A DNA stretch of 64,000 bases from Candidatus Mcinerneyibacteriota bacterium (GTDB lineage Bacteria > Macinerneyibacteriota > Macinerneyibacteria > Macinerneyibacteriales > DSCS01): assembly GCA_016937175.1 (NCBI GenBank), contig JAFGWL010000056.1, positions 166,845 to 230,844 of the forward strand. Reading direction: 5' to 3'. The position numbers and the translations under genes were made by a program. Every line of letters starts with the position of its first letter. The stretch's first letter is position 1. Shown piece by piece: positions 8,804-63,868 of this stretch. The notes under the pieces were generated by a model. The model worked only from the letters and a program-made list of their open reading frames with translations. It searched no databases and was not told the DNA's origin.

Positions 8804-10982
8804 CGCGTCCCTCCCTTTCCAATTGAGCTAACAGTTTAATATACCCTTTCATCTTCTCTTTGGCAACCAGAAGGGCTCTCAGGTTCTCCTCTTCCGCTTC
8901 GATGACCTGGGGGGAGGCTTTATTCAAAAATTCAAAATCAAACAGGCGGCTCCTTTTTTCGAGGATGCGTCTGTTTATCTCTTCCTTCTGCTGCTGCAAC
9001 TCCTCCATCCGCAGACTCACTCTTGATTTATCATAGACCGGGATATAGAGGCTGATCTTATCCAGCTTCATTTTCAAGCTTTTTTTGGGCATCTCCTTGG
9101 GAGTGATGTATTTGAGCTCTGTAAGACTTAAAAAACGGGTTATATAAAACATATTCCGGTTGAGGGTATCCTCCAGCCCGCCGCCGGGATTGGTTATCCA
9201 TATCTCCAGGGGTTCATCGGGCCCGATATTCAATATTGACTTTCCGTCCATGACCGTATCGATAAGATCCAGGATAAAATGGTCCCGTTCGAGTTCTTCG
9301 CTGAAGTGATAGTCCTCCCTGTAGGCCGGGATCCTTCCGGATTCCGAGATATCAGGATAAAAGGGAGCCAGACAGGTCTTAACAGCCCGGAAAACATAAA
9401 GAGAATTCCTGAAGACAGCGGGGTCCTCTTCTGCCTGAATCTTTTTGACAAAGGGATAGACACGGTGATCCAGAAGGCCCATGAGAGCTTCCAGATGCCC
9501 CAGAAAACTAAACAGGTCGCCTACTTCAAGGGATCCGGTCGCTTTCAGGATAAAATCTTCCAAGGCCGTGAGAAGCAATTTGTCGATATAAAAATCAGTC
9601 CTTATGTCCACTTCGTCCATGGCCCCTTTGATCCGTCTGGAAAAGAGCCTTTCCCACCTGTTGAGAAATGAAAGAACCTTCCTGTCGCTGAGATGGATAT
9701 CCCTGTGAAGAGCTCCATCAAGATAGGCCAGGGGAGATACTTCGGGGAAAGATTCCGGCAGGACTCCTTCTCCGGATCCCTCTCTGTATTCCAGCCCGAT
9801 GACCTTCCGGTTGTCCCCCTTTTGCCGGGGGGCGAGGATCTTTTGAAAAAAGGACAACCGGTCGGAGACGAAATCTTTTTCCTCCTCATGCAGGAGCAAA
9901 AACCTGACCGGTTGACGCCAGAGAAAGGGAAGGAGAAGATTTCGCATCCGGTCATTAAAGAGCGCCTCCTCCTTATGCGTAACTTTTGAACATGCCGGGC
10001 AGGACTTTTCATCATAAAAAAGTGTTTTACATTGCGGGCATATGCGGTATTCGATCCTGACCGGCCCCGGATGAGAGTCCGGCCAGCCTTTATGCGAAGT
10101 AAGGATCAGCGGCCCGCTTCTGGGCCGTTCAGAGGTCACTTGTTCTACTCCTTCCTCGGAGATAAAGAGATGCTCCGCCAGAAGGTTATCAGCCACTTCA
10201 TTGCAATGACGGCAGCGGGGGACTTCTATCTCCTGATCCAGAGATTGGGACAAAGCCCCGTACATACTGAGGTCTCCCAAAAGCCTCTCGGGGTCATTCC
10301 TGTAAAGGGAAAGGAGACGTGTCCGGCTTTCAGATTCTTCATCCTCTTTGTCCTCTTTCTGAAGAGTAATAAATCTTGTATAGTACTCCGGGCGTGAGAC
10401 ATCCTCTACTTTCAGGATAGGGACATGATGCCCCAGGATAGGGACGATTCCTTTTTTGTCAGCATACTTTTCCATATTCCGGACGCCGATGGCTTTGACA
10501 TTCAAAAGAGCCAGGGGATCTGTGACTGAAAAGGTCAGAGGGTCGGCAAGGGCGGTGACATTCATCCTCAATGAATAGACATGATGTCTTTCCCGGGTAA
10601 TGCGGACCTCATACCCTTCCAGGACCCTTCCGCATCCGGGGCAGAAATACCCTTTGATCAGGCCTTTACGGGGAAGCCGCCTCTTGAAGAGCTCTTTCAT
10701 GAGGCGGTTTACGAAATCATGCCGGGTCTCTTTGTCAAGGGGAAGATGAAGCTCTTCGAAGCGGATGCCGAGAAGAGTATAAAGTTTTTTTTTCAATATT
10801 TCTTTCTGATTGTTTTTGCAGAGGATAAGATCATAATAGGCCGGCTTTTCCTCCCCGAGAGAAGCAAACGCCTTGTGGAGAAAATTTCCATAGACCAGGG
10901 GATAAAGGTCACGGGCCGTGAGCCGCCTGTGGGTGACAGGCGTGTAATAGATCATGCCTTCTTTTTTGCTCTTATCAGCCAT
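8769..10982 (-). CDS. large cytoplasmic Zn-knuckle protein of unknown function; possible class I aaRS (MetRS)-like pseudo-enzyme
   Basis: 737 aa, no TM or signal peptide. Cys pairs CPGC (aa 114-117), CRHC (257-260) and CPQCKTLFYDEKSCPACS (315-331), the last resembling the MetRS Zn knuckle CPKCKSPDQYGDNCEVCG. No HIGH or KMSKS motif; C-terminal coiled-coil. Overlaps the PP2C gene by 35 nt and AMMECR1 by 8 nt. Confidence 0.55.
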   Translation of the reverse strand: MADKSKKEGMIYYTPVTHRRLTARDLYPLVYGNFLHKAFASLGEEKPAYYDLILCKNNQKEILKKKLYTLLGIRFEELHLPLDKETRHDFVNRLMKELFKRRLPRKGLIKGYFCPGCGRVLEGYEVRITRERHHVYSLRMNVTALADPLTFSVTDPLALLNVKAIGVRNMEKYADKKGIVPILGHHVPILKVEDVSRPEYYTRFITLQKEDKEDEESESRTRLLSLYRNDPERLLGDLSMYGALSQSLDQEIEVPRCRHCNEVADNLLAEHLFISEEGVEQVTSERPRSGPLILTSHKGWPDSHPGPVRIEYRICPQCKTLFYDEKSCPACSKVTHKEEALFNDRMRNLLLPFLWRQPVRFLLLHEEEKDFVSDRLSFFQKILAPRQKGDNRKVIGLEYREGSGEGVLPESFPEVSPLAYLDGALHRDIHLSDRKVLSFLNRWERLFSRRIKGAMDEVDIRTDFYIDKLLLTALEDFILKATGSLEVGDLFSFLGHLEALMGLLDHRVYPFVKKIQAEEDPAVFRNSLYVFRAVKTCLAPFYPDISESGRIPAYREDYHFSEELERDHFILDLIDTVMDGKSILNIGPDEPLEIWITNPGGGLEDTLNRNMFYITRFLSLTELKYITPKEMPKKSLKMKLDKISLYIPVYDKSRVSLRMEELQQQKEEINRRILEKRSRLFDFEFLNKASPQVIEAEEENLRALLVAKEKMKGYIKLLAQLEREGRDGGTKPVQKTP

Positions 10983-11532
10983 CCCGATCCTTTTCAGAAA
11001 AGATCTCGGCTGTAAAGGAGTAGATCTCAGTCTCGGGCCAGGAAGCAGCCTCGGGGGGGAGCCCCGCCTTCCGGCAGGTATGTCCGATAAACTCCTCCCG
11101 CCCCCAATGATACTCGACGGCTACCTGGGGCAGAAGGAGCCCTGATCTTGACCCGTTTCTGACAACGAGCCCGTCCCGTCCGGTACGTATCCCGCTCAGG
11201 TCCGTGATACGCTTCAGTGGCGACAGAAGAGAGATTTCAATGGCAACATCGTCAAGTTCCTCACGCCTGAGAGGTTCAAAACGGGGGTCGTGAAAAGCGG
11301 CTTCACGGGCTAAATGGATAACGGCGTCTTTCAACGGCTCCACTCCGGTTATAAAGCCGATGCATCCCTTTAGCTCACCGCTGAGAGTCAGAGTGACGAA
11401 AAGGCCTCTCTTTTGACTAAAAAGAGGATCTTCCAGAGGTTCGATAAAGATTCCGGGATCGAAGACAGATGCAATGCTCTGCCTTGCTCGTCTAAGAAGG
11501 GCTTGTCTCTGACCGTCCTTCAGTGTCAGCAT
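10975..11532 (-). CDS. AMMECR1-domain protein (AmmeMemoRadiSam system protein A-like)
   Basis: 185 aa with the AMMECR1 core LKGCIGF and LSPLKRI...LLLPQVA. Confidence 0.8.
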   Translation of the reverse strand: MLTLKDGQRQALLRRARQSIASVFDPGIFIEPLEDPLFSQKRGLFVTLTLSGELKGCIGFITGVEPLKDAVIHLAREAAFHDPRFEPLRREELDDVAIEISLLSPLKRITDLSGIRTGRDGLVVRNGSRSGLLLPQVAVEYHWGREEFIGHTCRKAGLPPEAASWPETEIYSFTAEIFSEKDRDG

Positions 11533-12493
11533 GCCCGGCCCCCCTCTTTGATTTCCGATGTATGAAAAAAACCACCAGGGCCCACAGGAAAAGAGCGATG
11601 ATGACGAAATTCATGATAACGCCCAGGTAGAGGTATTTCTTTTTATAGTCAAACTGCCGCTCATGTTCTTTCTTGAAGGCTTCGTCGCCGAAGCGGCACA
11701 TATATTTATGATCGGGAGCAAAGACATCAACGATGCCCTTGGCATTGTCACTCACGAAAAAATAACCGTTGTACGACGCAAGAGAGGCAGGAATATAATA
11801 TTTAGACTGAGCAGTCAAAAGAACTTCCTCAACCGGGTCATAGACATAATACCTGGCCGAGAAAAAATCCTTATCCGCGTAGAGAAAATGAAGGGCTCCC
11901 CCGTCATCTACTCCCCGGATGACGGTCCCCTCTTCAGGCAAACGGTCGAAAACTCTCTCCTCCGCCCCGCCAAGCTGACGGATGATATTACGGCCTCTCT
12001 CCGAGTAATAGATACCGCCTCTCCACTGAAAGAGGGCATAGGGCCTGACAGGTGTCTTTTGAGTCTCCAGGAGAGCCCCTTCAGAATCCAATATCTCAAT
12101 ATACTTCTCTTTAGCGGATACGCCGTAGATCTTTTTGCCGATGGCCGTGACTGTCGTGTAACGTCCGGCGGAAAAACTCTTCTGCGGGTTGAACCAGGAG
12201 TCATAGACGATAAACCGGCCATTCTCTCTGCGATAGGTCACCGGCACTCCTTCCAGAAAGAAGAAGGCATCGGGCTTGCTGCGGAATTGAAATCCCATGG
12301 ATTTCTCTCCGTTCAGTGTATACGCCTCGATGACACTTCCCTCAAGAAGATAGAGTTTATCTCCGTTGAACGCCAGGGCATCGATGCCGGGAGCTTTCAG
12401 GAAACGGTCTTTGGCGATAAAGTTGACGATAACGGCGAGGATGATAAGAGCGATGATGAGTATAGCCTGGGTGTTAAGCCTCTTCTCATTCAT
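11492..12493 (-). CDS. membrane protein, N- and C-terminal TM helices with ~270-aa Tyr/Gly-rich extracytoplasmic region
   Basis: ORF 11492-12526; likely start MNEKRL at 12493, whose ATG overlaps the TGA of the upstream small ORF (ATGA). Hydrophobic segments ILIIALIILAVIV and VIMNFVIIALFLWALVVFF. Confidence 0.55.
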   Translation of the reverse strand: MNEKRLNTQAILIIALIILAVIVNFIAKDRFLKAPGIDALAFNGDKLYLLEGSVIEAYTLNGEKSMGFQFRSKPDAFFFLEGVPVTYRRENGRFIVYDSWFNPQKSFSAGRYTTVTAIGKKIYGVSAKEKYIEILDSEGALLETQKTPVRPYALFQWRGGIYYSERGRNIIRQLGGAEERVFDRLPEEGTVIRGVDDGGALHFLYADKDFFSARYYVYDPVEEVLLTAQSKYYIPASLASYNGYFFVSDNAKGIVDVFAPDHKYMCRFGDEAFKKEHERQFDYKKKYLYLGVIMNFVIIALFLWALVVFFIHRKSKRGAGHADTEGRSETSPS

Positions 12494-12821
12494 CCCCGAC
12501 ACCGAATACTTCTTTAAGAAAATCATTCATAAGGTCTTCACTGTTATCCGAAGGAACGACCTGAGCCAATTCATCTTTTTCAGCATTTTTAATCGTGGAC
12601 ATCACCTCTTTGTGCTGTTCCACAAGCTTCTCCTCTATCTTCTTCTCGATCTTGTCCGGGTCTCCGTTAATGATCAACTTTTTTTTCTTGCTGCCGATGA
12701 TGGCCCCGTTATCGAAGATCAGGGTGACGATGGTGCTGTTGGACGGCATAAATTCCGTCTGAACATGGACCTTTCGGTTTTTAAATTCGACATCGCTGTT
12801 TCTCCCCTGAATCATGCTCAT
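12486..12821 (-). CDS. small hypothetical protein (111 aa), Lys/Glu-rich
   Basis: Complete ORF with ATGA-type coupling to rimI upstream and to the membrane protein downstream; no recognisable motif. Confidence 0.45.
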   Translation of the reverse strand: MSMIQGRNSDVEFKNRKVHVQTEFMPSNSTIVTLIFDNGAIIGSKKKKLIINGDPDKIEKKIEEKLVEQHKEVMSTIKNAEKDELAQVVPSDNSEDLMNDFLKEVFGVGDE

Positions 12822-18327: not shown

Positions 18328-19068
18328 ATGAGTATACACAAGAGAGCGCCCATGATTGAAAAAGAAGCCTTGATCGTCTCGTCACAAAGACACCTGGCCT
18401 CACGCCTTCAGACAGAGCTGGCCCGTATCCCCGGAATATCTGTCCGCCCCCGGATCTATGAAGAGGGGCGGCTCTCCTTCAACCTCCGCCGGCGCAGCCC
18501 CGACCTTATCTTCATGTCCCTTAAAAACGAGCCTTCTCTCTGGGTCGACCTCTTCCTCCATAGGCCCCCATTTTCGCAGGTCATCGCAATCACGCCCGAC
18601 CCTGCCCTGGCTCCCCGGGCTTTCCTTTATAACTGTGCCGATGTCCTGACATCCCCCTTCCGCGTTCAGGACCTGCGCAGGGCTGTCGCCAGGGCCCTGA
18701 CACGGCGTTTTCTTTGGCTCCGAAGACAGGAGAGGCACTTCTCCCCCCTGGCAGCCCGTAAAAAAGATGTGATCCGCTTTTTCAACCCTGAAGAAATCCT
18801 CTTTTTTAAAGCAGAAGATAAAGTCGTCTTTCTGTATACAGACAAAGAGCGCTATTTCTCACGTTTCAGCCTGAGCCAGCTGGAAGCTCGCCTAAACCCC
18901 CTCCAATTCTGTCGTGTCCGGCGTAATGTGATCGTAGCGCTTCATGCGATCCGCGAAGTGGAAATCAAAGGCTCACGCGGGCTTTTCCTCTCTCTCAGAG
19001 GAAGCGGGATGAAGATCCGCGCCGGACGGAGATATATCCCTTATCTTAAAGAAAAGCTACTCCTTTAA
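18328..19068 (+). CDS. LytTR-family DNA-binding regulator with degenerate (pseudo-)receiver domain
   Basis: C-terminal LytTR domain (IRFFNPEEILFFKAEDKVVFLYTDKERYFSRFSLSQLEARL...FCRVRRNVIV). N-terminal receiver-like fold has Ser at the phospho-Asp position (PDLIFMSL) and IVSSQ in place of the acidic pair. Possible true start MIEKE at 18352. 12-nt convergent overlap with the MEMO gene. Confidence 0.7.
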   Translation: MSIHKRAPMIEKEALIVSSQRHLASRLQTELARIPGISVRPRIYEEGRLSFNLRRRSPDLIFMSLKNEPSLWVDLFLHRPPFSQVIAITPDPALAPRAFLYNCADVLTSPFRVQDLRRAVARALTRRFLWLRRQERHFSPLAARKKDVIRFFNPEEILFFKAEDKVVFLYTDKERYFSRFSLSQLEARLNPLQFCRVRRNVIVALHAIREVEIKGSRGLFLSLRGSGMKIRAGRRYIPYLKEKLLL

Positions 19069-19896
19069 TCCCCAGGATCCGTATGTCACAAAAGAGTGAA
19101 GCCCCCCTGCGGGCATTTTGTCGTAGCTGGTCGTATATTCGAGAAGCTGGATGACACCTTGCCGGAAAAGCCCGCAGATCAGGGCCACACCTCCAGGGCC
19201 GCAGGCGGACTGATGCTCCAGGGCATATGGAATGATCTCCTTCCATTCTCCCTTGCTCACCTTTTTAATGAACTCAGGGTCTTTTTGCCGGGTCACATAT
19301 TCATATCCCGCAGCTCCTGTCCCCAGGGAAGAGTCTCCGTAACGGAACCCGTAGTGAGTCAAATCGGTACTGGCCACAAAGATCACTTCCGGATGATCCT
19401 CTTTTAGTTTTTCAAGGATATTGACATAATCCGTAAGGCTTTTCTGGATCCCCGGAGGAACTGAGACGGGAATGATCCGGCTCCGGGGATAGAGGTACTT
19501 TAAAAAAGGAAGCTGGACCTCGATGGAATGTTCCCCTTCATGGGCCCGGGCTGAATGGAGAAAGAGCGATTCATCGAAATAGTCTCTGATAAGCCCATGG
19601 GCAACGGGCATATCTCCCAAAGGAGTCTCCCAGGCACCTTCCGGAAAGACAGCAGGACGCTCCACTCCGTAGGTATGGACGGCCCCCAGGAGGAGGAAGA
19701 CGGCATCGGGGCAGGCATTCAAAGCTGCCAAGGCTCTGAGAGCGATTCCTCCTGAGAAGGCCCAGCCTGCATGGGGAACGATGCCCCCCCGGTATTCCCT
19801 CAGCCCTGTCTCTGACAGCTCGCATTTGATAAAAGCTTCGATCTCAGCGGCCCGGGCAGGATAAAACTGTCCGGACACGACAGCATTTCGTCTCAT
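19057..19896 (-). CDS. MEMO1-family protein (AmmeMemoRadiSam system protein B-like)
   Basis: 279 aa with the N-terminal VSGQFYPA and metal-site PHAGWAFSG motifs of the Memo fold. Confidence 0.8.
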   Translation of the reverse strand: MRRNAVVSGQFYPARAAEIEAFIKCELSETGLREYRGGIVPHAGWAFSGGIALRALAALNACPDAVFLLLGAVHTYGVERPAVFPEGAWETPLGDMPVAHGLIRDYFDESLFLHSARAHEGEHSIEVQLPFLKYLYPRSRIIPVSVPPGIQKSLTDYVNILEKLKEDHPEVIFVASTDLTHYGFRYGDSSLGTGAAGYEYVTRQKDPEFIKKVSKGEWKEIIPYALEHQSACGPGGVALICGLFRQGVIQLLEYTTSYDKMPAGGLHSFVTYGSWGLKE

Positions 19897-19904
19897 TCCG
19901 CCTC

Positions 19905-22709
19905 CTATTCAAACAATATTTTAAGATCCTCCCACGACATCGTTTTCATGAAAGCGGTATCGGTAAAGTCGAGAGAGTGGAACATCTCGCTCTTCTCTTC
20001 CTGCATTCTGATGATCTTTTCCTCGATAGTCCCTTCGGTGATCAGCTTATAGACATTGACAGTCCGGGTCTGCCCCATTCTGTAAGCCCGGTCCGTGGCC
20101 TGTCTTTCCACCATGGGATTCCACCAGGGATCAAAGTGGACCACGACATCCGCCCCTGTGATATTCAGGCCGGTGCCTCCGGCTTTGAGACTGACCAGGA
20201 TGATGGGGGTTTCTCTGTTTTCATTGAAACGGTCGACGATCTCCACCCGGTTCGGGGTCTTTCCGTCGATATATTCAAAAGGGATCTTATCTTTTCTCAG
20301 CTCATCACGGATGATATGAAGCATTTTTACAAACTGGCTGAAGAGAAGGATCCGGTGTCCGCCGTCCATGGATTCTGCGAGGATCTCTCTGAGCAGATCC
20401 ATTTTTGCTGAGATATCTTCATTCTCAGTGAGCTCAGGATAGATCATCCCCGGATGGTTACAGATCTGGCGCAGCCTGATCAGCGCGCTGAGGATATGCA
20501 TACGGCTCTTGACAAATCCCTCTTTTTCCACAAGCCCGAAGATCTCGTTTCTGATCTCCCCGAGAAATCGCTGATAAAGGGCCTTCTGCCCGTCTGTGAG
20601 AGGGACGACAGAGACCTGTTCGATCTTGGGAGGAAGCTCTGTGAGGACCTCTTCTTTTGTCCTTCTGAGGATAAACGGCTTGATCTTCATATTCAGCTCG
20701 TTGAGGACTTCTTCATTCTTTTCTTTGACGATCTCTTTGTCGTAATAATCGACGAAATGCCTTCTTGTCCCCAGGTATCCGGGCATGATAAAGTCAAAGA
20801 TCGACCAGAGCTCGCGAATGGAATTCTCCATAGGGGTCCCTGTCAGTACCAGTTTAAACATGGCGTCGAGTTTTTTAACGCTCCTGGCTACTTTGGTCTG
20901 ATAATTCTTGATATGCTGGGCTTCATCCAGGATGACATAGTGGTAGACCCGATCCTCGTAGAGGTCGATATCGTTGCGGAGGAGGGAGTAGGAGGTGATG
21001 AGCAAGTCCGCTTTCTCCGACCCGGCGATGATCTCTTCTCTCTGAGCCCGGTTACCCTCCACCACGGCACATTTCATATGCGGTGTGAATTTCTTCACTT
21101 CCTTGACCCAGTTATGCATCAGGGATTTGGGGCATACAACCATGGAGGGCAGCGCGCTGCTGACAGAAATCATCATGGCCAGAGCCTGGACTGTCTTTCC
21201 CAATCCCATGTCATCGGCCAGCACTCCGGAGAGTTTATAGCGGTGGAGAAAATGAAGCCAATAATAACCCTCTTTCTGATAAGGCCGGAGGATCTTATCC
21301 AAGCTTTCCGGGACAGGTATCTTTCTGATTCCTTTGACATCCATGAGCTCTTCATAGAGGGCCCGGAAACGCTCGTCACCCCGGATCTCGATGTCTTTAT
21401 TCTTCTTGACGTAGTTGATCAGGTGAGGCAGGTAATAGATCTTATGCTGGAAGCTCTCTTTTTTATCCAGAGAGAGTGCAAAAGCCGCCTTAAAGTCCTC
21501 CATGAATTGACGGATCTCTTCCAGGTTCACAAGCTTCAGGATCCTTGTCTTATCCAATTTGATAAAGGGGTCCCCTTTACGGATATGATCTCTCAGCATC
21601 TCAGGGTCAAGCGAATAATCCTCTTTCAGCCCGCACCCGAAATTCAGGGTAAATGAAGAGTCCTCTTCCAGAGATATTTCCAGAACCGGTTTGATGGTCA
21701 CATTGAAAATGCGGATCTGCCGGAATTCCGGGGTCAGCCTCTTTGTCCAGTCAGAGGGGATCCTTTTAAATCCGTTGATGAGAAAGTCGATGATATCATC
21801 ATTGTCCTTGAGGACGAAAAAGCCCTCTTCCCATTTGAAGTTATATTGAAAGAAAAAAAGAAAAAGACGGCGTTCCTTCTTGGGGTCTCTGCGGATAAAA
21901 TTGATCTGGTCATCTACGGTCTTGACGATATAGGGGCCTTTTTTGACAATATCGCTGTAAGTAAAATCCATCTTCCCGTAATGATAGATGGGATCCACTT
22001 TGATGATCCCTTCGGAGTAGTCAAGCTTTAATTCTATATTGAGCTGGTTATGGTGGATCTCCAGACGTCTTATTTCCCCGTCCCATTGAAAATCGAGGTA
22101 TCTGTTCCAGTAATTGTGATAATTATCGATAAAATCAAAGAGCTCCTCCTCCCGGAACTCCTTCCCCTTAGTCAGAATCCTGTCCCAGAGAGGCTGGGAA
22201 TAGACCGGAAGAAGGCGGGCCAGCAGGGAACCGCTCAGATACCACTTCTCTCCCTCGAAGGAAAGGATGCGCGAACTGGCTTCAGGCCCTGGGTTGACCG
22301 ATATGCTCTCCTGACTGCATCGGATGAGGACAGCCGGTTTTTCGAACTTTTCGCGGACATCCAGCCGTACCCCTGAAGAGAGCAGATAAAGCTGCTCATA
22401 CCCGATCAGAAGGCTCAGGAGATCTCTGGCATAGGGGCCATGAAGGACAAAAGCCTTGTTGACAAATTTCCCGAATTTCAGGAGATGCTCCAGAATCATC
22501 TCCTGATGCTCCGTCAAAGTCCCGAGGATGTCGAATATCTCCTCTTCCCGGAAAAAATCCCGGGTTGCATTCTCGGGATGGCTGATAAACTCCATCATCT
22601 CGTTCTGCAGCCCTGGCCAGTCCGTCTCCCGGCCCGGTTTCAGCGTAATGAATATATCGCTGATCGTATCTTCTATACCGATGTAAAAGGGCAGGGGCCT
22701 TTCAGTCAT
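19905..22709 (-). CDS. SNF2-family helicase with ~480-aa N-terminal domain of unknown function
   Basis: 934 aa. SNF2_N motifs LADDMGLGKT and ILDEAQHIKN, then helicase C (LKAGGTGLNITGADVVVHFDPWWNP). The N-terminal half has no recognisable motif. Confidence 0.85.
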   Translation of the reverse strand: MTERPLPFYIGIEDTISDIFITLKPGRETDWPGLQNEMMEFISHPENATRDFFREEEIFDILGTLTEHQEMILEHLLKFGKFVNKAFVLHGPYARDLLSLLIGYEQLYLLSSGVRLDVREKFEKPAVLIRCSQESISVNPGPEASSRILSFEGEKWYLSGSLLARLLPVYSQPLWDRILTKGKEFREEELFDFIDNYHNYWNRYLDFQWDGEIRRLEIHHNQLNIELKLDYSEGIIKVDPIYHYGKMDFTYSDIVKKGPYIVKTVDDQINFIRRDPKKERRLFLFFFQYNFKWEEGFFVLKDNDDIIDFLINGFKRIPSDWTKRLTPEFRQIRIFNVTIKPVLEISLEEDSSFTLNFGCGLKEDYSLDPEMLRDHIRKGDPFIKLDKTRILKLVNLEEIRQFMEDFKAAFALSLDKKESFQHKIYYLPHLINYVKKNKDIEIRGDERFRALYEELMDVKGIRKIPVPESLDKILRPYQKEGYYWLHFLHRYKLSGVLADDMGLGKTVQALAMMISVSSALPSMVVCPKSLMHNWVKEVKKFTPHMKCAVVEGNRAQREEIIAGSEKADLLITSYSLLRNDIDLYEDRVYHYVILDEAQHIKNYQTKVARSVKKLDAMFKLVLTGTPMENSIRELWSIFDFIMPGYLGTRRHFVDYYDKEIVKEKNEEVLNELNMKIKPFILRRTKEEVLTELPPKIEQVSVVPLTDGQKALYQRFLGEIRNEIFGLVEKEGFVKSRMHILSALIRLRQICNHPGMIYPELTENEDISAKMDLLREILAESMDGGHRILLFSQFVKMLHIIRDELRKDKIPFEYIDGKTPNRVEIVDRFNENRETPIILVSLKAGGTGLNITGADVVVHFDPWWNPMVERQATDRAYRMGQTRTVNVYKLITEGTIEEKIIRMQEEKSEMFHSLDFTDTAFMKTMSWEDLKILFE

Positions 22710-22769
22710 ATCTCCATCTCTTCATCGTTTATCTTTTACTGTACCCCCATAAAATAAAACGGGCAAGCC

Positions 22770-25700
22770 TTAATGCTGTCGTATCTCCCTGATACGCGAT
22801 GCGGCTGTCTTACTGTACACGGTCTCTTTTCCTGATATCTGAATAATATATTCGTAGATCTCCACGGCTTTATCCATCTCTCCCAGCGCTTCATAGGCAG
22901 TCCCGCCCTGGAAGAGCGCGGTGACCATCCACTGAAAATCTTCATCGGTATTGACAGGGAGGTATTTCACTTTCATAAACTCACGGATGGCATCCCGGTA
23001 GTGTCCCCGGGCATAATAACAGTCTCCGATATTGAACTGGATTTCCATCTTCAGAGAGTCCGGTGCCCGGTCAATAAAGGAAGTGAGACGGCCCAGGGCC
23101 TCGTCATACTTCCTCTCATCCATAAAAGTATAGACAATATTGAGAAGAGCTCCGTAGTAAAGGGGTGTTTCAGGGAAACGGTCCACGACCTGCTGAAACG
23201 CTTCACGGGCTTTACCGGTCTCCCCCTCTTCCTTAAAGAGGAGTCCCCGGTTATAGAGCGCATCGGGACTGGGTTTGAATTCGTAGGAGCGTTGGAAATA
23301 GTCCAGCGCCTTATCTTTATCGCCCAGAGCATAATGGGCCTGTCCCAGGGAAAGATAGAGCTTTTCCTTTCCTTCGAAGGAGGGGTTAGCCTCAAGACGA
23401 AGGAAGATGTCCAGAGCCTTGTCCGTCTCGCCCTTTCCCAGGCGGATATTTCCGAGCATGAAGGCTGCCTGAAGGTTCCAGGGTGTCTCCAGGACTTCCT
23501 TCCCCCCGCCGGCCTGAATAAAATAATCTTCCGCCCGTCCGGCATCTTTTTTCCCCAGATAGGCCACTTCTCCCAAGACATAAGATATCTCTTCCTCAAA
23601 CTCTCTGAGGGTTTTGCTGTTCTTTCGACGAAGAGCAAGTCCTTCGTCAAGGCGGTTCAGACGGGTAAGTGCAATGACACGCCGGCTGACGGAATAAGCA
23701 TCCCCCTCCCGGAAAAACTCCAGGATATCCCTCCAGCGCTCCTGCTCAGCCAAAGCTTTATAGACCCGGCCCCGGACATCCCTTCCGCGGGCTTTTCCCA
23801 GAAGCCCCATGGCCTCTTCATCCATCCCCAGCTTCAGGCAGGCAAGTCCCTTGACCACAGCAAGCCCACCCTCTTCCGCCGTGATGTTCAGGCAGGCTTT
23901 CCGGGCGGCTTCTTTCTGTCCGTCAAGGATCAGGGCATCCAGATAGAGTCCCATGACCTCCGGGTCGTTATAATATTCGGGCAGACGGGTCAGGACATTA
24001 TAGATATTGAAGATCACTTCTTCGTAATCGGCTTCGCCGAAGGCGATATCGGCCAGCAGAAGGCTGGCTTTGACCTTCATCTCAAAGGGCTTCGTAATGG
24101 ACAAAAGAAGCTCCCTGGCTTCCCCGTTACGCCCTGTCCGGTGATAGATAGATGCCAGATAGTAGGACAGAGTCCCCCTCTTTTCCCCCTCTGTTTCAAG
24201 CAGTCCGGTAAAGAGGCGTTCGGCCTCTCCGTAATTGGAGTTGTAATAGGCAGTCATGGCACGGGCATACTCTTCAGCAGGTGTTCCTGCCACACTTTCG
24301 GGAAGCGGGAGCTCTTTGAACGCCTCTTCCCTCTCTTCACTGATAAGAAAATCGATATAGCTCCGCACCGTATCCTGGCTCACAGACCCGGGAAAGTTCG
24401 AAAAGGCGTAAAGGAAATCATCCTCTTCCAGAGTCCCTTCCATGTCATAATAGACCAGGACATGGGAATAGACTTCTCCTGCAGCCGGATGGTCTTTGCG
24501 TGCGTTGAAGAACGATTCGATTTCGCTTTTCGGCCCCTTTTTCAGAAGCAGGGCATAAGCTCCCGCCCGGAGGGCCTTCTCATCGTCCCGCCCGCCTTTT
24601 TGGTAATACTCATAGGCTTTGCTGAAATCTTTGACCGAGAAAAAGACATCGCCCCGCTGTCTGTAGAGCTCTTTTTCTCCCACGGGTTCTTTCAGCTGCT
24701 GCTCCAGGAGGCCGTCCAGCGCGGCAAGGCCCCGGGTTATATCGGTGATGATATAACGGTTCAGATAATCGATCCTTTTGCGGGCCTTATCGGCCAGGGG
24801 GGAGAAGGGGAAACGCTCTCCGATATTTTTGTAAGCTGTCACGGCTCTGTCGTAGCGAGGGATCTTCTCATAACAGAGGCCTATCTCATAAAGGGCTTTA
24901 TCCCCATATCCTTCAGTATTGAAGGCAATACGCTCAAAGGCGGCGATGGCCCGCTCATAATCCTTCATCTCATAGGCATAGATCCGCCCGACACGATAGA
25001 CCAGATAAGGGACCTGGGGATCCCGGGAGAAATATGTAATATAATCGAGAAGGGCATTGACGGCCTGGGCATGGAAACCGCCATCTTCAAAAAATTCGGC
25101 TTTCTCCATAAGAGCTCTTTTGATTTCGGCTTCATCCTGCCTGTTTCTGTGGAATCCTGCCATTTGATCGAAGAGAGCTGCGATCTTTTCCGTGTCCCAG
25201 CCTCTTTTTTCTCTCTCGATATCCAGAGCGAGCCTGACGATGTCGGGATAAAGGGAGCTGTCAGGATAGGCCTTAAGAAAATAGTCGACCTCCTTTGCCG
25301 CCTCCTCCTTCTTGCCCAGCAGAAGAAGGGCTTCGGCTTTCCCTTTCAGGGCATCATCAGCCATAGCGCTGTTGGGGTTCTTGTCAAGAAGAGACTGGAA
25401 AGCGGCTGCGGCTTCGGAAAAGGCCCTCTTTTCCATATATACCCGTCCCTTTCCGTAAAGAGCCCGGTAATAGTACTCGCTCTCCGGATAGCGTGACATG
25501 AGCCCCTGATACTCTCTGAGAGCCTTATCATAATCATACTGACCGAAGGCGATCTCCGCTCTGTACCAGGCCCATTTCCCCGGATCGAGGTCCTTCTCCT
25601 CTAATTTTTCCAAAAATGGACGGGCCTTTTCCATCTCTCCCCGTTCAAAATGGTAGTCCAGAAGAGAGATATAGGCCTTTTTCAGATTGTCTCCCCTCGG

Positions 25701-26192
25701 GTTGAGATTGATGATTTCCTTCATTGCCTTAAAATAGGCCTCATGTTCACCGGCTTGCCGGTAGAGAGATGCCGCCAGAAACAGGGTCTCGGTGTAGAGG
25801 GAGGTATCTTTATAAAAGCGCCTGATCTTTTCTGCCGTCTCAAGAGCCTGTTTTTTCATTCCGCTTTCATCCAGGGCCAAAGCGATGTAATAGAGGATAT
25901 CGCCTAAAGCCGGGCTCTCCTCATAACGCTGAAGGAACCTGTTCCCTTCCGTGAGGACCATATTCCACTTCTCCAGACGGGCATACGAGGCGATCAGCTT
26001 CCGGTAAGCGCCTTCGACCCGCCGGTCCTGGGGGTTCTCATTGATAAATGTCTTATACTCTTCCACGGCCAGGTCAAAAAAACCATCCTGAAAGAGTTTT
26101 TCGGCATAGTCGAATCCTCCGATGATCCCCGAGACAGAAACAGGGGAGAGGATCAACACCACGATGACCGCGATTTTATGAAGAAACTTCAT
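22770..26192 (-). CDS. giant TPR-repeat protein, secreted/periplasmic
   Basis: 1140 aa with N-terminal signal peptide (MKFLHKIAVIVVLILSPVSVSG) and TPR-like units along the whole length; 17-nt overlap with the upstream 4Fe-4S gene. Confidence 0.7.
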   Translation of the reverse strand: MKFLHKIAVIVVLILSPVSVSGIIGGFDYAEKLFQDGFFDLAVEEYKTFINENPQDRRVEGAYRKLIASYARLEKWNMVLTEGNRFLQRYEESPALGDILYYIALALDESGMKKQALETAEKIRRFYKDTSLYTETLFLAASLYRQAGEHEAYFKAMKEIINLNPRGDNLKKAYISLLDYHFERGEMEKARPFLEKLEEKDLDPGKWAWYRAEIAFGQYDYDKALREYQGLMSRYPESEYYYRALYGKGRVYMEKRAFSEAAAAFQSLLDKNPNSAMADDALKGKAEALLLLGKKEEAAKEVDYFLKAYPDSSLYPDIVRLALDIEREKRGWDTEKIAALFDQMAGFHRNRQDEAEIKRALMEKAEFFEDGGFHAQAVNALLDYITYFSRDPQVPYLVYRVGRIYAYEMKDYERAIAAFERIAFNTEGYGDKALYEIGLCYEKIPRYDRAVTAYKNIGERFPFSPLADKARKRIDYLNRYIITDITRGLAALDGLLEQQLKEPVGEKELYRQRGDVFFSVKDFSKAYEYYQKGGRDDEKALRAGAYALLLKKGPKSEIESFFNARKDHPAAGEVYSHVLVYYDMEGTLEEDDFLYAFSNFPGSVSQDTVRSYIDFLISEEREEAFKELPLPESVAGTPAEEYARAMTAYYNSNYGEAERLFTGLLETEGEKRGTLSYYLASIYHRTGRNGEARELLLSITKPFEMKVKASLLLADIAFGEADYEEVIFNIYNVLTRLPEYYNDPEVMGLYLDALILDGQKEAARKACLNITAEEGGLAVVKGLACLKLGMDEEAMGLLGKARGRDVRGRVYKALAEQERWRDILEFFREGDAYSVSRRVIALTRLNRLDEGLALRRKNSKTLREFEEEISYVLGEVAYLGKKDAGRAEDYFIQAGGGKEVLETPWNLQAAFMLGNIRLGKGETDKALDIFLRLEANPSFEGKEKLYLSLGQAHYALGDKDKALDYFQRSYEFKPSPDALYNRGLLFKEEGETGKAREAFQQVVDRFPETPLYYGALLNIVYTFMDERKYDEALGRLTSFIDRAPDSLKMEIQFNIGDCYYARGHYRDAIREFMKVKYLPVNTDEDFQWMVTALFQGGTAYEALGEMDKAVEIYEYIIQISGKETVYSKTAASRIREIRQH

Positions 26193-27018
26193 TGAAAGCT
26201 CCTTTCTTCTTCAAAAGAGGGGTAAAAGAGATACATGAGACCGGGCACGCAGGGAGACAGTCTCCGCAGCGGATACACTCCTCAGACCCGGGGTCTTCGC
26301 TGATATTGATATCCACAGGGCAGACGGAGCGGCAAGCTCCGCAAGAGACACAGCGGCCCATGTCCACATGGATGGTATAGAGGCTGATCCTATTGAAAAA
26401 CCCCAGTATTGTCCCCAAAGGACAGGTCGTCCTGCAGAAAAAACGGGGGATGACTACGGATAAACCGCTGTAGGCGATAAGGAGCCCCACTTTCCAGAAA
26501 TAGAGGAGCCCAAGGGGGATATTCAATGACCAGACCAGTGTCAACCCGCCCTCCAGGGTCCCTGCAGGGCAGATATAGGTGCAAAAGGCCGGTTTCAGGA
26601 GAACAAGAGGCAGAATTACGATAAAGAGGCCCAGGATGATATAGCGGATCAGGATGAAAAAACGGGGCAGTCCCAGAGAGATGGAAGAGATCTTCTTCAA
26701 CAGGTCCTGATAAAACCCGAAGGGACAGAGATGGCCGCAATACCACCGCCCTGCCAGAAGCCCGGCGCTTCCCAGAAGCCCCAAGACAAGAAGAGAGATG
26801 TGGCGGGCCTGGCTGTAGATCATATACTGCAGGCTGCCCAGGGGGCATGAAGTCAGTGCCCCCGGACAGGAGTAACAATTAAGGACCGGCAGACAGAGCC
26901 CCTTTGACTCACCCTGAAAGGGAGCAGCTTCGATAAATCCTTTAATATTGGAATTGATACCTATGCTGAAGAGAAGCTGCCGCCAAAAACGTTTTTTGAA
27001 AAAAGAAAGCCATTTCAT
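26176..27018 (-). CDS. membrane-bound 4Fe-4S-binding protein (NapH/MauN-like)
   Basis: 280 aa. Several TM helices, CxxCP-type motifs (CYSCPGALTSCPLG, GHLCPFG, CTYICPAGT, CPLGT) and a ferredoxin-type domain CVSCGACRSVCP...CIRCGDCLPACP. Confidence 0.75.
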   Translation of the reverse strand: MKWLSFFKKRFWRQLLFSIGINSNIKGFIEAAPFQGESKGLCLPVLNCYSCPGALTSCPLGSLQYMIYSQARHISLLVLGLLGSAGLLAGRWYCGHLCPFGFYQDLLKKISSISLGLPRFFILIRYIILGLFIVILPLVLLKPAFCTYICPAGTLEGGLTLVWSLNIPLGLLYFWKVGLLIAYSGLSVVIPRFFCRTTCPLGTILGFFNRISLYTIHVDMGRCVSCGACRSVCPVDINISEDPGSEECIRCGDCLPACPVSCISFTPLLKKKGAFNEVSS

Positions 27019-27019
27019 A

Positions 27020-27166
27020 TTATCCGATCCCGATGCACCCGTAGCAGATGTAAATACCGTTGTTTTTAATGAGTTCCCATTCCCCCGTCAGAAGGCCCGC
27101 CAGGATCAAAAGGAGAGCCAGAAAAAGCAGGAGGGCCGCTGTGCGGATCTTATTCTTCTTTGTCAA
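27020..27166 (-). CDS. candidate small membrane peptide (48 codons, TTG start) coupled to the NapH-like gene
   Basis: Minus strand reads TTG-ACA-AAG... and encodes LTKKNKIRTAALLLFLALLLILAGLLTGEWELIKNNGIYICYGCIGIG. It is preceded by GGGGGA, and its TAA lies 1 nt before the ATG of the 4Fe-4S gene. Below the ORF-track size cutoff; the start overlaps the folP stop by ~17 nt. Confidence 0.35.
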   Translation of the reverse strand: MTKKNKIRTAALLLFLALLLILAGLLTGEWELIKNNGIYICYGCIGIG

Positions 27167-28346
27167 GATAAATCCCCCTTATCACACGGACAGCGTCCCG
27201 GGCAGCTGCCACGTCGTGGACCCGGAGGATGTCGGCTCCGTTGCCCAGGGCCACAGCGTGAGCGGCGACAGTTCCCCACAGACGCCCGGCCGGCGGGCGC
27301 CCTGTAAGGGTCCCGAGAAACGATTTTCTTGAAAGCCCCATGACAAGGGGATAGGGGAGGGATTTAAACTCTCTCAGCCGCCTGAGAAGAGCGGTATTGT
27401 CTTCGAGCCGCTTCCCGAACCCTATTCCCGGGTCGATGAGGAGAGAATCTGCCGCGATCCCCGATTTCCGGGCTTCTTCCGTCCGGCCGGCAAGATATGC
27501 ATAGACTTCACCCGTGACATCTTCGTAAAAGGGGTTTTCCTGCATGGTATCAGGTGTCCCCTTCATATGCATAAGGATAACAGCGGCTTTAAAAGAGGCT
27601 GCTGTGGGAGCCATCTCAGGGTCATGAGAAAGCGCCGAGACGTCATTGATGATATCCGCCCCGTTTTCCAGAGCCTTGCGGGCGACATAGCTCTTGCGTG
27701 TATCCACCGAGACAGGGATCTCCGGAGCTTTTTCCCGGATAAGGGCCAGGGGCCTTTCTATTCGCTCCCACTCTTCAGAAGGCGATACCTCCCGGCTTCC
27801 CGGCCGGGTGGATTCTCCCCCGATATCGATAAGGTCGGCCCCCTCTTCTATAAGCTGTCTGATCCGGTTCTTTAAGGTGGCTTCATCTGTATGATGCCCT
27901 CCATCATAAAACGAATCGGGGGTCACATTAAGGATTCCCATGACCAGAGGGGCTGAAAGGCCGATCTCTTTGCCCCGGGCCCGGAAAAAGGCAGGAGGTG
28001 TATCGGGATTCAGCAGCGCGCGCGCTATTTGTTTCAGGCCGAAGGGCTGCTGTTCCAGTTTCCGGCTAAGTTTTTCCAGGTTTCTCCGGGTCCCCATGAG
28101 AATGATATCGGTCTTTTCAGGCTTCCCGGAAATGGCCGAACGGGGCAGCACAGCATCGGCCCCTACGCTTAGAGCATCCTGTTTTATGATATTGGCCGCT
28201 TCAATGCGACACCCTTCTATCTTGATCAGCCGGACCTCTCTCTTTCTCTCAAAGATCTCCAGGGCATAAGGGTCCACCCCGATTCTCTTGAGTTCATTTA
28301 AAAAATCCCCCTCTGAAGGATAGAGGCACCTCATCCGAGTCTCCAT
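27150..28346 (-). CDS. folP: dihydropteroate synthase with ~120-aa N-terminal extension
   Basis: 398 aa. DHPS core begins MGILNVTPDSFYDGG and includes DIGGESTRPG and MHMKGTP; the first ~120 residues are not part of canonical DHPS. Confidence 0.85.
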   Translation of the reverse strand: METRMRCLYPSEGDFLNELKRIGVDPYALEIFERKREVRLIKIEGCRIEAANIIKQDALSVGADAVLPRSAISGKPEKTDIILMGTRRNLEKLSRKLEQQPFGLKQIARALLNPDTPPAFFRARGKEIGLSAPLVMGILNVTPDSFYDGGHHTDEATLKNRIRQLIEEGADLIDIGGESTRPGSREVSPSEEWERIERPLALIREKAPEIPVSVDTRKSYVARKALENGADIINDVSALSHDPEMAPTAASFKAAVILMHMKGTPDTMQENPFYEDVTGEVYAYLAGRTEEARKSGIAADSLLIDPGIGFGKRLEDNTALLRRLREFKSLPYPLVMGLSRKSFLGTLTGRPPAGRLWGTVAAHAVALGNGADILRVHDVAAARDAVRVIRGIYLDKEE

Positions 28347-28406
28347 ATCACTCCTGTCGTTAGCCGTATTGATTGTCCGGGATTACGGGAAAACAGCCCT
28401 TTCATT

Positions 28407-30155
28407 CTAATTATCCCCCCTGCCGCTGTCAACGGAAATATCTCTCCGGGGCAGGCCGAAAACGCATATTTCAAAGGGTGAGAGGGTCACTCTCTTTCGG
28501 GACGGCCTTTTTTCCCCTTTGAAAAGGTCATAGGTGAAGGATTCCGGCATAAAGGGAGAGAGGTCGGCCTCCAGCCGCTTCTCTGTGACATTGATGACAC
28601 AGAAGAGTTGTTCCTCCCCTTCCCCGCGTACGACAGTGAAGACCCTTTTCCCTGTATCGGGATAGCGGGCCGGCTTGTCAGGAGCGAAGGCGGGCAACGC
28701 TCTTCTGAAGCGGAGAAGTCTTGTGTAACGGGCCCATATCTCTGACCTGTGCCCCTCCTGGCCGGCCATGACCCTTTCGGCTTCCCTTCGGGGGATCTTG
28801 TAACGGTTGATCGTCCGAGCTCTTCCGGTCGACTCCACCCCCTCTGCCCAGTTTCCGACACCGAAAAGACTGTTGATATAGACAGCGGGGATCCCGGGCA
28901 GAAAGAGCATGAGGGCCTGTGAGGCCAGGAAAGCCTCGGCACGCAGCTCTTCGCGCGCCAGGCCGGAAGCGATGGCGTCTATATAGGTGATATTCAGCTC
29001 ATAGGGCTTTTTCCCCCGGCGAGGGTCATCGCGTGTGGAGACGATCCCCCCGGCTTTTTCGATCTTTCGGATAAGATATCCAAGCTCTTCATCGTCAATA
29101 AGTCCTTCCAGGGGACGGACACCGATCCCGTCGTGAGAAGCGGTAAAATTCAAAAAAGTGCAACGGGGTGAGAGCGCTTTCAGAGAAGAAGCCCAGAACC
29201 GGAGTTTTGAGACATCCCCGTTGAGGAATGTATAGAGGATCAGAGGAGGAAGAGGGAAATTATAGACCACATGAGCCTCATCCTCTCCGTTACCGAAGTA
29301 GGAGATATTTTCCTTATGGGGGACATTGGTCTCTGTCACAAGCAGCCTCTTCCCGGGAAAAAGGTCGCAAAAAAGCCTGAAGAGCTTCACAAGGCGGTGT
29401 GTCTCCTCCAGATGAAGGCAGGTCGTCCCTTTCTTTTTCCACAAAAACCCTACCGCGTCCAGGCGGAGGGCTGAGATCCCTTTTTTCAGATAAAAAGCTG
29501 TCACTTCCAGCATCTTTTTGAGGACTTCCGGATTAGCGTAGTTGAGGTCCACCTGGTCAGAGCTGAATGTGGTCCAGAGCCAGGCAGTGGAACCGTCCTT
29601 CTTCTGAAACGGGGTCAGGAGAGGAAGAGAGCGGGGACGGACGACCAGGGTGGTATCTTCAGAAGGATCGGCTTCAATGAAAAAGTCCTTATAGGCAGGC
29701 TCACCGGCAAGGTACCCGAGGACCCATTCACTTCGGCTGGAGATATGATTTAAAACAAGATCCGCCATGAGAAAAAAAGAGTCTTCTATCTTCTGTACAC
29801 TTTTCCACCCCCCCAGGCCGGGACGGACTCTGGTATAATCGGTGACGGCAAACCCGTCATCCGAAGAGTAAGGGAAAAAGGGAAGGATATGGATCAGGGA
29901 AAAGAGAGGTGTGAAAGCAGCCTCGGCGATCTCAGCAAAGGCCTCCAGCGGTGGCCGGTTTCCATCCAGGATAGAATCGCCGTAGGTAATAAGCCATACA
30001 TCCTTATGGCCGAAGAGCTGTCCGGGAAAATCTCTTTCCTCTTCTTCTGACAGGTGCTCCATGAGGTCGATGATACGGTCTATCTCCCGGGGTGGATAAA
30101 GGCCCTTCATCAACTCTTCAGCTTGGATCTTCCATTTGCTTCTCATCTCTCTCAC
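28407..30155 (-). CDS. GH13_18 sucrose-phosphorylase-family glycoside phosphorylase
   Basis: 582 aa with LVLNH, VDLNYANPEV, the catalytic-region LRLDAVGFLWK and FLASHDGIG. Confidence 0.8.
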   Translation of the reverse strand: MREMRSKWKIQAEELMKGLYPPREIDRIIDLMEHLSEEEERDFPGQLFGHKDVWLITYGDSILDGNRPPLEAFAEIAEAAFTPLFSLIHILPFFPYSSDDGFAVTDYTRVRPGLGGWKSVQKIEDSFFLMADLVLNHISSRSEWVLGYLAGEPAYKDFFIEADPSEDTTLVVRPRSLPLLTPFQKKDGSTAWLWTTFSSDQVDLNYANPEVLKKMLEVTAFYLKKGISALRLDAVGFLWKKKGTTCLHLEETHRLVKLFRLFCDLFPGKRLLVTETNVPHKENISYFGNGEDEAHVVYNFPLPPLILYTFLNGDVSKLRFWASSLKALSPRCTFLNFTASHDGIGVRPLEGLIDDEELGYLIRKIEKAGGIVSTRDDPRRGKKPYELNITYIDAIASGLAREELRAEAFLASQALMLFLPGIPAVYINSLFGVGNWAEGVESTGRARTINRYKIPRREAERVMAGQEGHRSEIWARYTRLLRFRRALPAFAPDKPARYPDTGKRVFTVVRGEGEEQLFCVINVTEKRLEADLSPFMPESFTYDLFKGEKRPSRKRVTLSPFEICVFGLPRRDISVDSGRGDN

Positions 30156-62600: not shown

Positions 62601-63868
62601 GCATCACCGATGGACTGCAGGATGGCCAGGCGCGTCTTTTCAGATTTGTATTGTCTGTTTTCTTCCCGAAGCCGGATAAACCGTAAAAAAAGAAGAAGAA
62701 GGCCCGTTACAAGAAGGCCGCTTGCAAAAACAAGCCAAGGTATATACAGAGGGCTTTCTTTAAAAAACATCCGGTCAGCAGCCAGACGGACATTCCATTC
62801 GTTTTCACCCGCCCTGATGGAATCTTCCCTGACAAAGGGCTCCCTAGCCTTTGCCGGACAGCGGGAAAAGACTGTTTTGGAACCGGTGAGCCCGTAAGGG
62901 TCACGGACTTCGATTCCTATATAAAACTGTTCCTTTGGGCTTATAATCTCCGTAATCACCTGATCCATAAGGATGACTCCCTCAAGAAAGCCCTGAAGCT
63001 CTTTTGTATTTACCGCCTTATAGACAGGGAGAATAAAAGAGACAACGGCGTGTTCTTTCAGCTCTCCGGGGTGGAACGTGGAATCCACCAGCGTTATGCT
63101 GCCCCGGGCCAGGGCCCGCTCATAGACCATCCTTCGATATGGGAACTCCTCGGTTTTCAGTCCAGTAACCCCTTCGTGTCCTTGTTTGGGTTCAATAAAG
63201 AAAACCGGGTAATAGACCGACTCCTTTTGAATAACCTTGGCCGGGGTCAAGTCTTTTTCTTTCAAAACAAAGTCAAACCCCTCCTGCAGGGCTTTTTGTC
63301 TCAGAGAAGGAAGCTCTTGTCCTCGCACCGCTGCGATCCAGACGATCGAATGAATGTCCGGGTTCTTACTCAGAAGATGGGAGGAAAAGTTTGTAAACTC
63401 CCGATAAGAGATTTGTTCACTGTTTTCAAAAAAATTCTTCACCCCGGCCAGGCCGTTCCACAACTCGCTGACCTTGGCCTGAAGGGAGACTTCGAGGAGG
63501 TCGGCTCTCCTGTCAAAGATTTTTTTCAACCCTTTCAACTCACTCTGATAGGTCATCCAGAAGAGGACGATAAAAAAGACATAGCCGGTGAGGGCGATAC
63601 TGATAAGATGGTTTCTGCCGTCGGAGCCCTGGAGTCCTGCTTCTTCCTCTGTGCGTCTTCTCCCCTTAATCCACTTGATCAGGATAAAAGTATTTGCAGA
63701 AATGATAATTAAGATAAAAAGAATGAAGATGAGATCAGCTCTCCACAAACAGGTCAGAGGCCCCAAGCCATTCAGCCGTAAAACGATGTACAGAGTGCTG
63801 AGCAGCGTAAGAGCCAGGCTCAGCCCTAATACAGGGTGCTGACTTTTTCCACGCAAATGGTTGGACAA
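59612..63868 (-). CDS. multi-PAS hybrid sensor histidine kinase with extracytoplasmic sensor domain
   Basis: 1418 aa. Two TM helices flank a ~330-aa periplasmic domain. At least four PAS/PAC modules, HisKA H-box [10 protein letters not shown], HATPase N/G boxes ([16 protein letters not shown]) and a C-terminal receiver (VLIIEDD...VILLDMVMP). Confidence 0.85.

Follow-up and report, generated by a model that had tools for sequence, protein, structure and literature searches.

A predicted six-gene operon headed by an N-extended folP, conserved in the lineage of Candidatus Mcinerneyibacterium and probably of mixed function

A 64,000-nucleotide (nt) stretch of DNA from a Candidatus Mcinerneyibacteriota bacterium (assembly GCA_016937175.1, contig JAFGWL010000056.1, positions 166,845-230,844), hereafter the window, contains a block of six minus-strand open reading frames (ORFs) at positions 19057-28346. 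The ORF listing revealed that the six are packed tightly, with neighbours that overlap or lie at most 60 nt apart, as an earlier note on this DNA had claimed. Profile searches against Pfam and NCBIfam also confirmed the gene families proposed there: an N-extended folP, which encodes dihydropteroate synthase (DHPS), followed by genes for a micropeptide, a polyferredoxin, a TPR protein, an SNF2 ATPase and a Memo protein. The features of the block, from its head to its last gene, are:

28404-28432, minus strand: predicted sigma-70-type promoter, with the -35 element TTGACA at 28432-28427, a 17-nt spacer and the -10 element TAGAAT at 28409-28404
27150-28346, minus strand: folP, 398 amino acids (aa)
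27020-27166, minus strand: micropeptide gene, 48 aa, with a TTG start
26176-27018, minus strand: polyferredoxin gene, 280 aa
22770-26192, minus strand: TPR protein gene, 1140 aa
19905-22709, minus strand: SNF2 ATPase gene, 934 aa
19057-19896, minus strand: Memo gene, the last of the block, 279 aa

The folP and micropeptide genes overlap by 17 nt, a gap of 1 nt separates the micropeptide gene from the polyferredoxin gene, and the TPR gene starts inside the 3' end of the polyferredoxin gene, giving another overlap of 17 nt (26176-26192). The TPR and SNF2 genes are separated by 60 nt. Of the two overlaps given in the earlier note, the one at 26176-26192 is real, whereas the other, at 19896 to 19905 between the SNF2 and Memo genes, is in fact a gap of 8 nt. 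These overlapping or near-abutting stop and start codons suggest partial translational coupling along the block.

A consensus scan showed that the promoter is the sole site of its quality on the operon strand near the block, with 11 of 12 consensus positions matched. It lies 58 nt upstream of the folP ATG, which has an AGGAG ribosome-binding site in front of it. The upstream, co-directional alpha-amylase/sucrose-phosphorylase-like gene (28407-30155) ends with a TAG stop codon that is part of the -10 element TAGAAT, and the promoter is thus embedded in the 3' end of that gene. The search for internal promoters and terminators consisted of consensus and energy scans only. Within the block, the consensus scan found no sigma-70-like site on the operon strand. 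The terminator pattern scan gave 28 internal candidates against 18 ± 3.7 expected, from which the two main hairpins, at 22163-22137 and 28321-28305, were folded. The best hairpin reached -13.9 kcal/mol (z = -1.7), belongs to a conserved part of the SNF2 coding sequence and is not convincing as a terminator; the 60-nt gap between the TPR and SNF2 genes is unstructured (z = 0.06). Strong internal promoters or terminators, which according to the earlier note would speak for a coincidental juxtaposition, were thus not found by consensus scan and hairpin folding. Overall, the six genes very probably form one operon, which is probably transcribed from the sigma-70-type promoter just upstream of folP, co-transcription of all six being predicted from the sequence alone.

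Relatives of the block were found via the loci of close and distant polyferredoxin homologues, in addition to a scan of species-representative genomes. Five further lineages have the six genes in identical order, again with tight or overlapping junctions, making six block lineages in total (the window; L002-4/L089-90; L005-6; L007/L009; L008; and L010). L008 is GCA_964423645.1, and L010 comes from Candidatus Mcinerneyibacterium aminivorans, which stands as its own candidate phylum. Distances among the five lineages compared are all about the same, and their GC content spans 31-52%. Among them, the identity is ~52% for folP, 45-59% for the polyferredoxin, 40-47% for Memo and 51-62% for the SNF2 ATPase (53-93% when measured across the clade), and drops to 32-34% for the TPR protein, the most diverged protein of the block. 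Nevertheless, the overlap of the polyferredoxin and TPR genes is retained in every lineage, at 14-23 nt, and four of the five junctions are overlaps or gaps of at most 12 nt in most lineages; the TPR/SNF2 gap varies from 60 to 95 nt.

The head of the block is similarly conserved. The string ATATTT..GTTGACA..N17..TAGAATG is unchanged in the window, L002, L005 and L007, although the surrounding bases have diverged, and the corresponding sites read TTGACA-17-TAAAAT in L010 and TTGACA-17-TACAAT in L008, where an additional ORF of 108 aa follows the site. In L010 the gene upstream of folP is divergently oriented, and folP therefore heads the unit. In the nearer relatives the flanks of the block are syntenic too. 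In L008 and L010, the most distant of the loci, by contrast, none of the other ~55 genes of the window lies within ±10 kb of the block, which is the sole conserved synteny; the block has therefore survived a complete reshuffling of its surroundings. A complete lack of synteny in relatives, the other observation that would have pointed to coincidence, is thereby contradicted by a gene order that is conserved even between different flanks. The recurrence of the block in five other lineages is more than a chance arrangement, and one deep lineage, which has been sampled poorly and counts Candidatus Mcinerneyibacterium aminivorans among its members, has conserved the operon. In this comparison, the window is assigned to the lineage by its similarity to the Mcinerneyibacterium locus alone. 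Two of the lineages carry an additional small ORF without any Pfam match, namely the 108-aa ORF between promoter and folP in L008 (8340-8666) and a 110-aa ORF after Memo in L010 (18124-18456).

The same observations bear on the explanation that the genes are merely adjacent, as an ancestral synteny that has not yet decayed, and are transcribed separately. All block lineages may form one clade, such that shared ancestry alone would explain the presence of the block, and the 60-95-nt gap between the TPR and SNF2 genes could hide a promoter, as TATAC/TATAAT-like strings are found there in L008 and L010. However, both flanks have been replaced in precisely these two lineages with the block left intact, and four of the five junctions are too tight for promoters or terminators in most lineages. 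Moreover, a single conserved promoter stands at the head, and the interior yielded neither a consensus promoter nor a convincing terminator. We consider separate transcription of merely adjacent genes to be very unlikely.

The first protein of the block passes the dihydropteroate synthase model TIGR01496 (330.9 bits against a cut-off of 162.6, aa 135-390). As the Pterin_bind domain (PF00809) covers aa 136-377 of 398, FolP has a genuine N-extension of ~130 aa. DHPS is the target enzyme of the sulfonamides. The protein is divided into two parts:

~27996-28346, minus strand: N-terminal alpha/beta domain of FolP, ~115-130 aa (aa 1-~117)
~27216-27941, minus strand: Pterin_bind TIM barrel of FolP

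AlphaFold2 models gave a pLDDT of 92 for full-length FolP and 88 for the N-terminal domain alone, which is thus predicted with confidence to fold as an alpha/beta domain. The domain has no Pfam model and no sequence match in the PDB. A BMC-shell-like fold (EutS/CutR/PduU) was considered and rejected, as the best Foldseek match is not significant (E = 0.14, TM-score 0.42). An exhaustive HMMER search detected the domain in 643 cluster representatives, with the conserved motif AANILKQ..LS.GGDAA...QPFGL. It is always N-terminal among the best 150 matches listed, many shorter ones of which may be fragments. When ten matches were scanned with Pfam, nine carried Pterin_bind; seven of these nine are 393-407 aa long and two are longer. 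Nothing relevant to N-terminal extensions of DHPS was found in the papers searched. Judged from these profile matches, folP with this N-extension represents a widespread architecture without a name and is not special to this locus: the extension recognised in the earlier note is real, but it does not set the block apart.

The gene neighbourhood of folP has a precedent as well. The closest outgroup genes for N-extended FolP sit in tilS-ftsH-(folE)-folP-cdaA clusters, which by analogy are a version of the mixed ftsH-folP-glmM neighbourhood in Pseudomonas and Burkholderia (PMC6629908, PMC5587915). In both kinds of cluster, as in the present block, folP is packed co-directionally with genes of unrelated function in a lineage-conserved manner. 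However, folP is internal in the ftsH-folP-glmM and ftsH-folP-cdaA clusters and the first gene here, and the block lacks ftsH, glmM and cdaA, its neighbours being entirely different. In two outgroup loci with N-extended folP (L169, 6368-9292; L170, 7574-10498), the gene after ftsH-folE-folP-cdaA encodes a TMEM260-like protein of 974 aa that matches TPR (ANAPC3) faintly. A large TPR-containing envelope protein is thus found downstream of folP there too, albeit of a different family and with cdaA in between.

The micropeptide consists of a K/R-rich N-terminus, one transmembrane (TM) helix and a C-terminal IC-x-x-CIGIG motif, the window copy ending in ICYGCIGIG. It is found in all members of the clade, whose peptides align well together, and because it is conserved in every relative, as judged from sequence comparison the ORF is a real gene and the earlier note was right to include it in the block. 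Against NF040920, the CD1871A CXXC family, it scores E = 5e-6 and aligns to model positions 2-38 of 38; at 26.2 bits against a curated cut-off of 32, the score does not assign it to the family. We therefore worked with a definition taken from the survey, namely a small TM peptide with a C-terminal CXXC that is encoded directly upstream of a 4Fe-4S polyferredoxin, which the window peptide fits. Of 87 loci from various phyla, 82 have a small ORF ending in CxxC immediately in front of the polyferredoxin homologue. In L064 (9160-9945) and six similar loci, a multi-TM protein of ~261 aa with no Pfam match takes the place of the free peptide of 45-50 aa and carries the motif (...ICTECIGLG) at its C-terminus.

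The polyferredoxin contains the Pfam domains Fer4_5 and Fer4_7 and belongs to a group of more than 4300 homologues. Its cysteines are arranged as an N-terminal CX5CX2CX6CP, three CX3CP motifs and a C-terminal pair of [4Fe-4S] sites (2x[4Fe-4S]), and 24 of them are invariant in an alignment of eight sequences. The matches in the PDB cover the ferredoxin domain only. Like NapH/MauN, it is an integral membrane protein that combines CX3CP motifs (Fer4_5) with 2x[4Fe-4S] at the C-terminus, but it differs in the extra N-terminal CX5CX2CX6CP and third CX3CP, and no napA, napG or napC is nearby. Its scores, 54.1 bits against a cut-off of 213 for TIGR02163 (NapH/MauN) and 48.6 against 234 for the NapH equivalog NF007013, fall well short, and no molybdopterin or nap gene was found among the window ORFs scanned for a nap/mau context. 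Both score and gene context thus rule out a NapH/nitrate-reductase subunit; the term NapH-like in the earlier note captured the polyferredoxin type correctly, but the kinship does not go beyond a distant resemblance.

The pair of micropeptide and polyferredoxin closely matches the CD1871A/4Fe-4S pairs of Clostridia, Spirochaetes, Aminicenantes and others, in which a TM peptide of ~45-50 aa with the motif IC-x-x-CIG[IL]G precedes a Fer4_5 polyferredoxin of ~280 aa that is 40-49% identical to the window protein. There are two differences: the clade peptides have G or S where most others have E in C-x-E-C, and the pair is inserted here between folP and the TPR gene, whereas elsewhere it stands alone, neighbour clustering having found no recurrent partner for it. 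Nothing relevant to CD1871A was found in the papers searched. Six of 70 polyferredoxin homologues are fusions, in which an extra TM helix and a WCGPC/WCGSC domain follow at the C-terminus; in L051 and L064, the two scanned, Pfam assigned this domain to Redoxin/Thioredoxin. The loci concerned are:

L051 2936-4486, L052, L064 9938-11548, L078, L086 and L087: polyferredoxins with a C-terminal WCGPC/WCGSC fusion, of Clostridia type

Because such thioredoxin-like fusions occur, we infer that the module might take electrons from [4Fe-4S] clusters in the cytoplasm and pass this reducing power through the membrane, towards cysteines or thiols on the extracytoplasmic side. Among all parts of the block, the micropeptide and polyferredoxin make up the sole cross-phylum module.

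The TPR protein matched multiple TPR families in profile searches, including YbgF/CpoB-like and BamD-like repeats. As its N-terminus is signal-peptide-like in all five lineages examined, it is predicted to be an exported scaffold protein. The SNF2 ATPase comprises the Pfam domains SNF2_assoc, SNF2-rel_dom and Helicase_C and shares its architecture with bacterial SNF2_assoc-SNF2 ATPases (PF08455 and PF00176), with 37-46% identity to the nearest outgroups. At 934 aa, it is shorter than most outgroup proteins, which have roughly 980-1130 aa. Compared to the SWIM-finger SNF2 proteins common in Firmicutes, it lacks the N-terminal CxC...CxH SWIM-like motif, as seen by inspection against one outgroup representative. 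The flanking TPR and Memo genes accompany the SNF2 gene in this clade only and are not found beside the outgroup genes.

SNF2 helicases occur in the Zorya, DISARM and Dpd systems, and the block as a whole, or just the SNF2 part of it, might therefore be explained as an island that is mobile or serves in anti-phage defence. Indeed, the ATPase scores highly against the PADLOC models of DpdE and ZorD and the NCBIfam models of ZorD and DrmD. However, the PADLOC matches are limited to the generic helicase core (aa ~437-912), and the NCBIfam scores lie far under the cut-offs (ZorD 247 bits against 1500, DrmD 88 against 950 and DpdE 40 against 500), as they do for all named NCBIfam equivalogs. The other four proteins scanned, with the micropeptide left out, gave no PADLOC match. 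Moreover, no integrase, transposase, tRNA or repeat signature was found near the block, the composition is uniform across the region, and the SNF2 gene is a single-copy conserved member of the block in all lineages. With matches to the generic SNF2 core only and no partner proteins, the defence island is largely refuted and strikes us as barely credible.

The last protein, Memo, is clearly assigned by both PF01875 (4.6e-43) and TIGR04336 (AmmeMemoRadiSam B; 191.8 bits against a cut-off of 26). A second component of the AmmeMemoRadiSam system is encoded elsewhere in the window:

10975-11532, minus strand: AMMECR1 (AmmeMemoRadiSam A), with PF01871 at 1.3e-52 and TIGR04335 at 172 bits against a cut-off of 99

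Thus Memo passes the B model and the A component is present, as in the known system, but B sits in the folP block and A lies 7.5 kb outside it, so the components are dispersed instead of adjacent. For the radical SAM partner, no CX3CX2C motif was found in the ~60 ORFs of the 64-kb window; this partner may lie outside. A 344-aa ORF adjoining AMMECR1 (11492-12526) matches no family.

Whether the block genes associate elsewhere was assessed by two outgroup surveys, each of the best 80 loci and dominated by Firmicutes, Spirochaetes and gut taxa, in which each block junction was tested from one side. For the polyferredoxin, the best 80 loci in 185,579 species genomes included 78 outside the clade, from Clostridia, Spirochaetes, Aminicenantes, Desulfobulbaceae, Dehalococcoidales and others; in none of these 78 was folP, a related TPR protein, SNF2 or Memo found within 10 kb. 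For the SNF2 ATPase, the best 80 metagenome loci comprised two in the clade and 78 in the outgroup at 37-46% identity, and none of the 78 has any other block gene within 10 kb. Neighbour clustering of these 78 + 78 loci revealed no recurrent functional partner except the micropeptide, and yielded only sporadic response regulators, ABC ATPases and groups of near-duplicate gut contigs. Hence, block pairings other than micropeptide-polyferredoxin do not recur in the outgroup loci surveyed, and the cross-lineage recurrence that would mark a functionally coupled cluster was not found. The six-gene combination was not seen outside this lineage in the scans made; the papers searched gave no description of the arrangement and nothing relevant on Mcinerneyibacterium. 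The earlier note had called the operon unusual; this is true of the combination, which these scans did not find outside the lineage, but the single new pathway that was implied gains nothing from the outgroups, where the pairings do not recur.

These surveys also weigh on the view that the block is one lineage-specific functional system, such as an envelope redox or assembly machine, in which the redox module would feed electrons to the TPR protein or be scaffolded by it, SNF2 and Memo would act as cytoplasmic regulators or maturases, and DHPS would be co-regulated. Order, spacing and overlaps are kept in six lineages at ~33-60% identity and between unrelated flanks, and the polyferredoxin/TPR overlap is invariant in kind. 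Moreover, the signal peptide of the TPR protein and the membrane location of micropeptide and polyferredoxin mean that the three could meet in the envelope. On the other hand, the micropeptide-polyferredoxin pairing is the only one to recur in the 78 + 78 outgroup loci, the redox module stands alone elsewhere, Memo belongs to a separate three-part system whose A component is 7.5 kb away, and the role of DHPS is well established and unrelated. To our knowledge, no biochemistry links SNF2 ATPases to folate or to envelope redox, which further counts against a single system. Taken together, we regard one system as unlikely. In a narrower form of this idea, the redox module would join the TPR protein, whose translation is putatively coupled to it, in an envelope redox/assembly complex peculiar to the lineage, with all six products interdependent. 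The outer-face Cys/Fe-S sites of the polyferredoxin and the CXXC peptide would then act on clients that the TPR scaffold holds. The depth of conservation speaks for this reading, yet we consider it distinctly improbable.

The explanation we favour, and hold to be likely, is a real six-cistron operon of mixed-function housekeeping type, in which the genes are co-expressed without a shared pathway. We propose that the operon strings together at least four independent units. The first would be the DHPS for folate synthesis, with its widespread uncharacterised N-terminal domain; the second, a two-gene membrane redox module of CXXC micropeptide and polyferredoxin; the third, the exported TPR scaffold protein; and the fourth, the cytoplasmic SNF2 ATPase together with Memo, whose partner AMMECR1 is encoded elsewhere. 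A shared pathway is disfavoured because the outgroup loci lack the pairings, the N-extended folP sits in other neighbourhoods there, and AMMECR1 lies outside the block. What is new is the lineage-specific arrangement, and what is familiar is a conserved mixed-function operon anchored on folP.

Several points weigh against the mixed-function operon. The order and overlaps have been kept at deep divergence amid reshuffled flanks, which is stronger conservation than in many mixed operons and could reflect genes that depend on one another in function in a way that comparisons between phyla do not reveal. The polyferredoxin/TPR overlap in every lineage would also fit the stoichiometric co-production of interacting envelope proteins. 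Furthermore, among the best 80 loci per survey, partial blocks in sister phyla may have been missed, and the co-transcription on which any operon depends is predicted from the DNA alone.

Within 10 kb, the neighbours of the block include amylase-family, SfsA, aldo-keto reductase, LytTR, TPR, prfB and similar genes. At the 3' end of the block, Memo overlaps by 12 nt with a convergent LytTR-domain gene (18328-19068, plus strand). The window copy of this gene has no Pfam receiver domain, whereas its orthologue in L007 has Response_reg and an adjacent histidine kinase. Opposite the TPR and SNF2 genes lie long antisense ORFs (23001-25496, plus strand, 831 aa; and 20454-21656, plus strand, 400 aa, respectively), which are probably shadow ORFs and not genes because the sense-strand proteins are conserved. 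Farther off, positions 59612-63868 (minus strand) encode a 1418-aa hybrid sensor kinase with CHASE, at least five PAS, HisKA/HATPase_c and receiver domains. Across the whole 64-kb window, Rfam at gathering thresholds returned no match to an RNA element such as a riboswitch, and no tRNA was found.

Altogether, an eye-catching combination of genes turns out to be a conserved operon without comparative support for a new pathway, a case that guards against equating operon membership with shared function in candidate phyla. Two of its components could merit study in their own right. One is the N-terminal domain, which is found on hundreds of DHPS clusters and has no structural relative; the other is the CXXC micropeptide and polyferredoxin pair, which is present in many anaerobic phyla, occasionally thioredoxin-fused, and uncharacterised. 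In addition, the block may be usable as a synteny marker for the lineage with Candidatus Mcinerneyibacterium.

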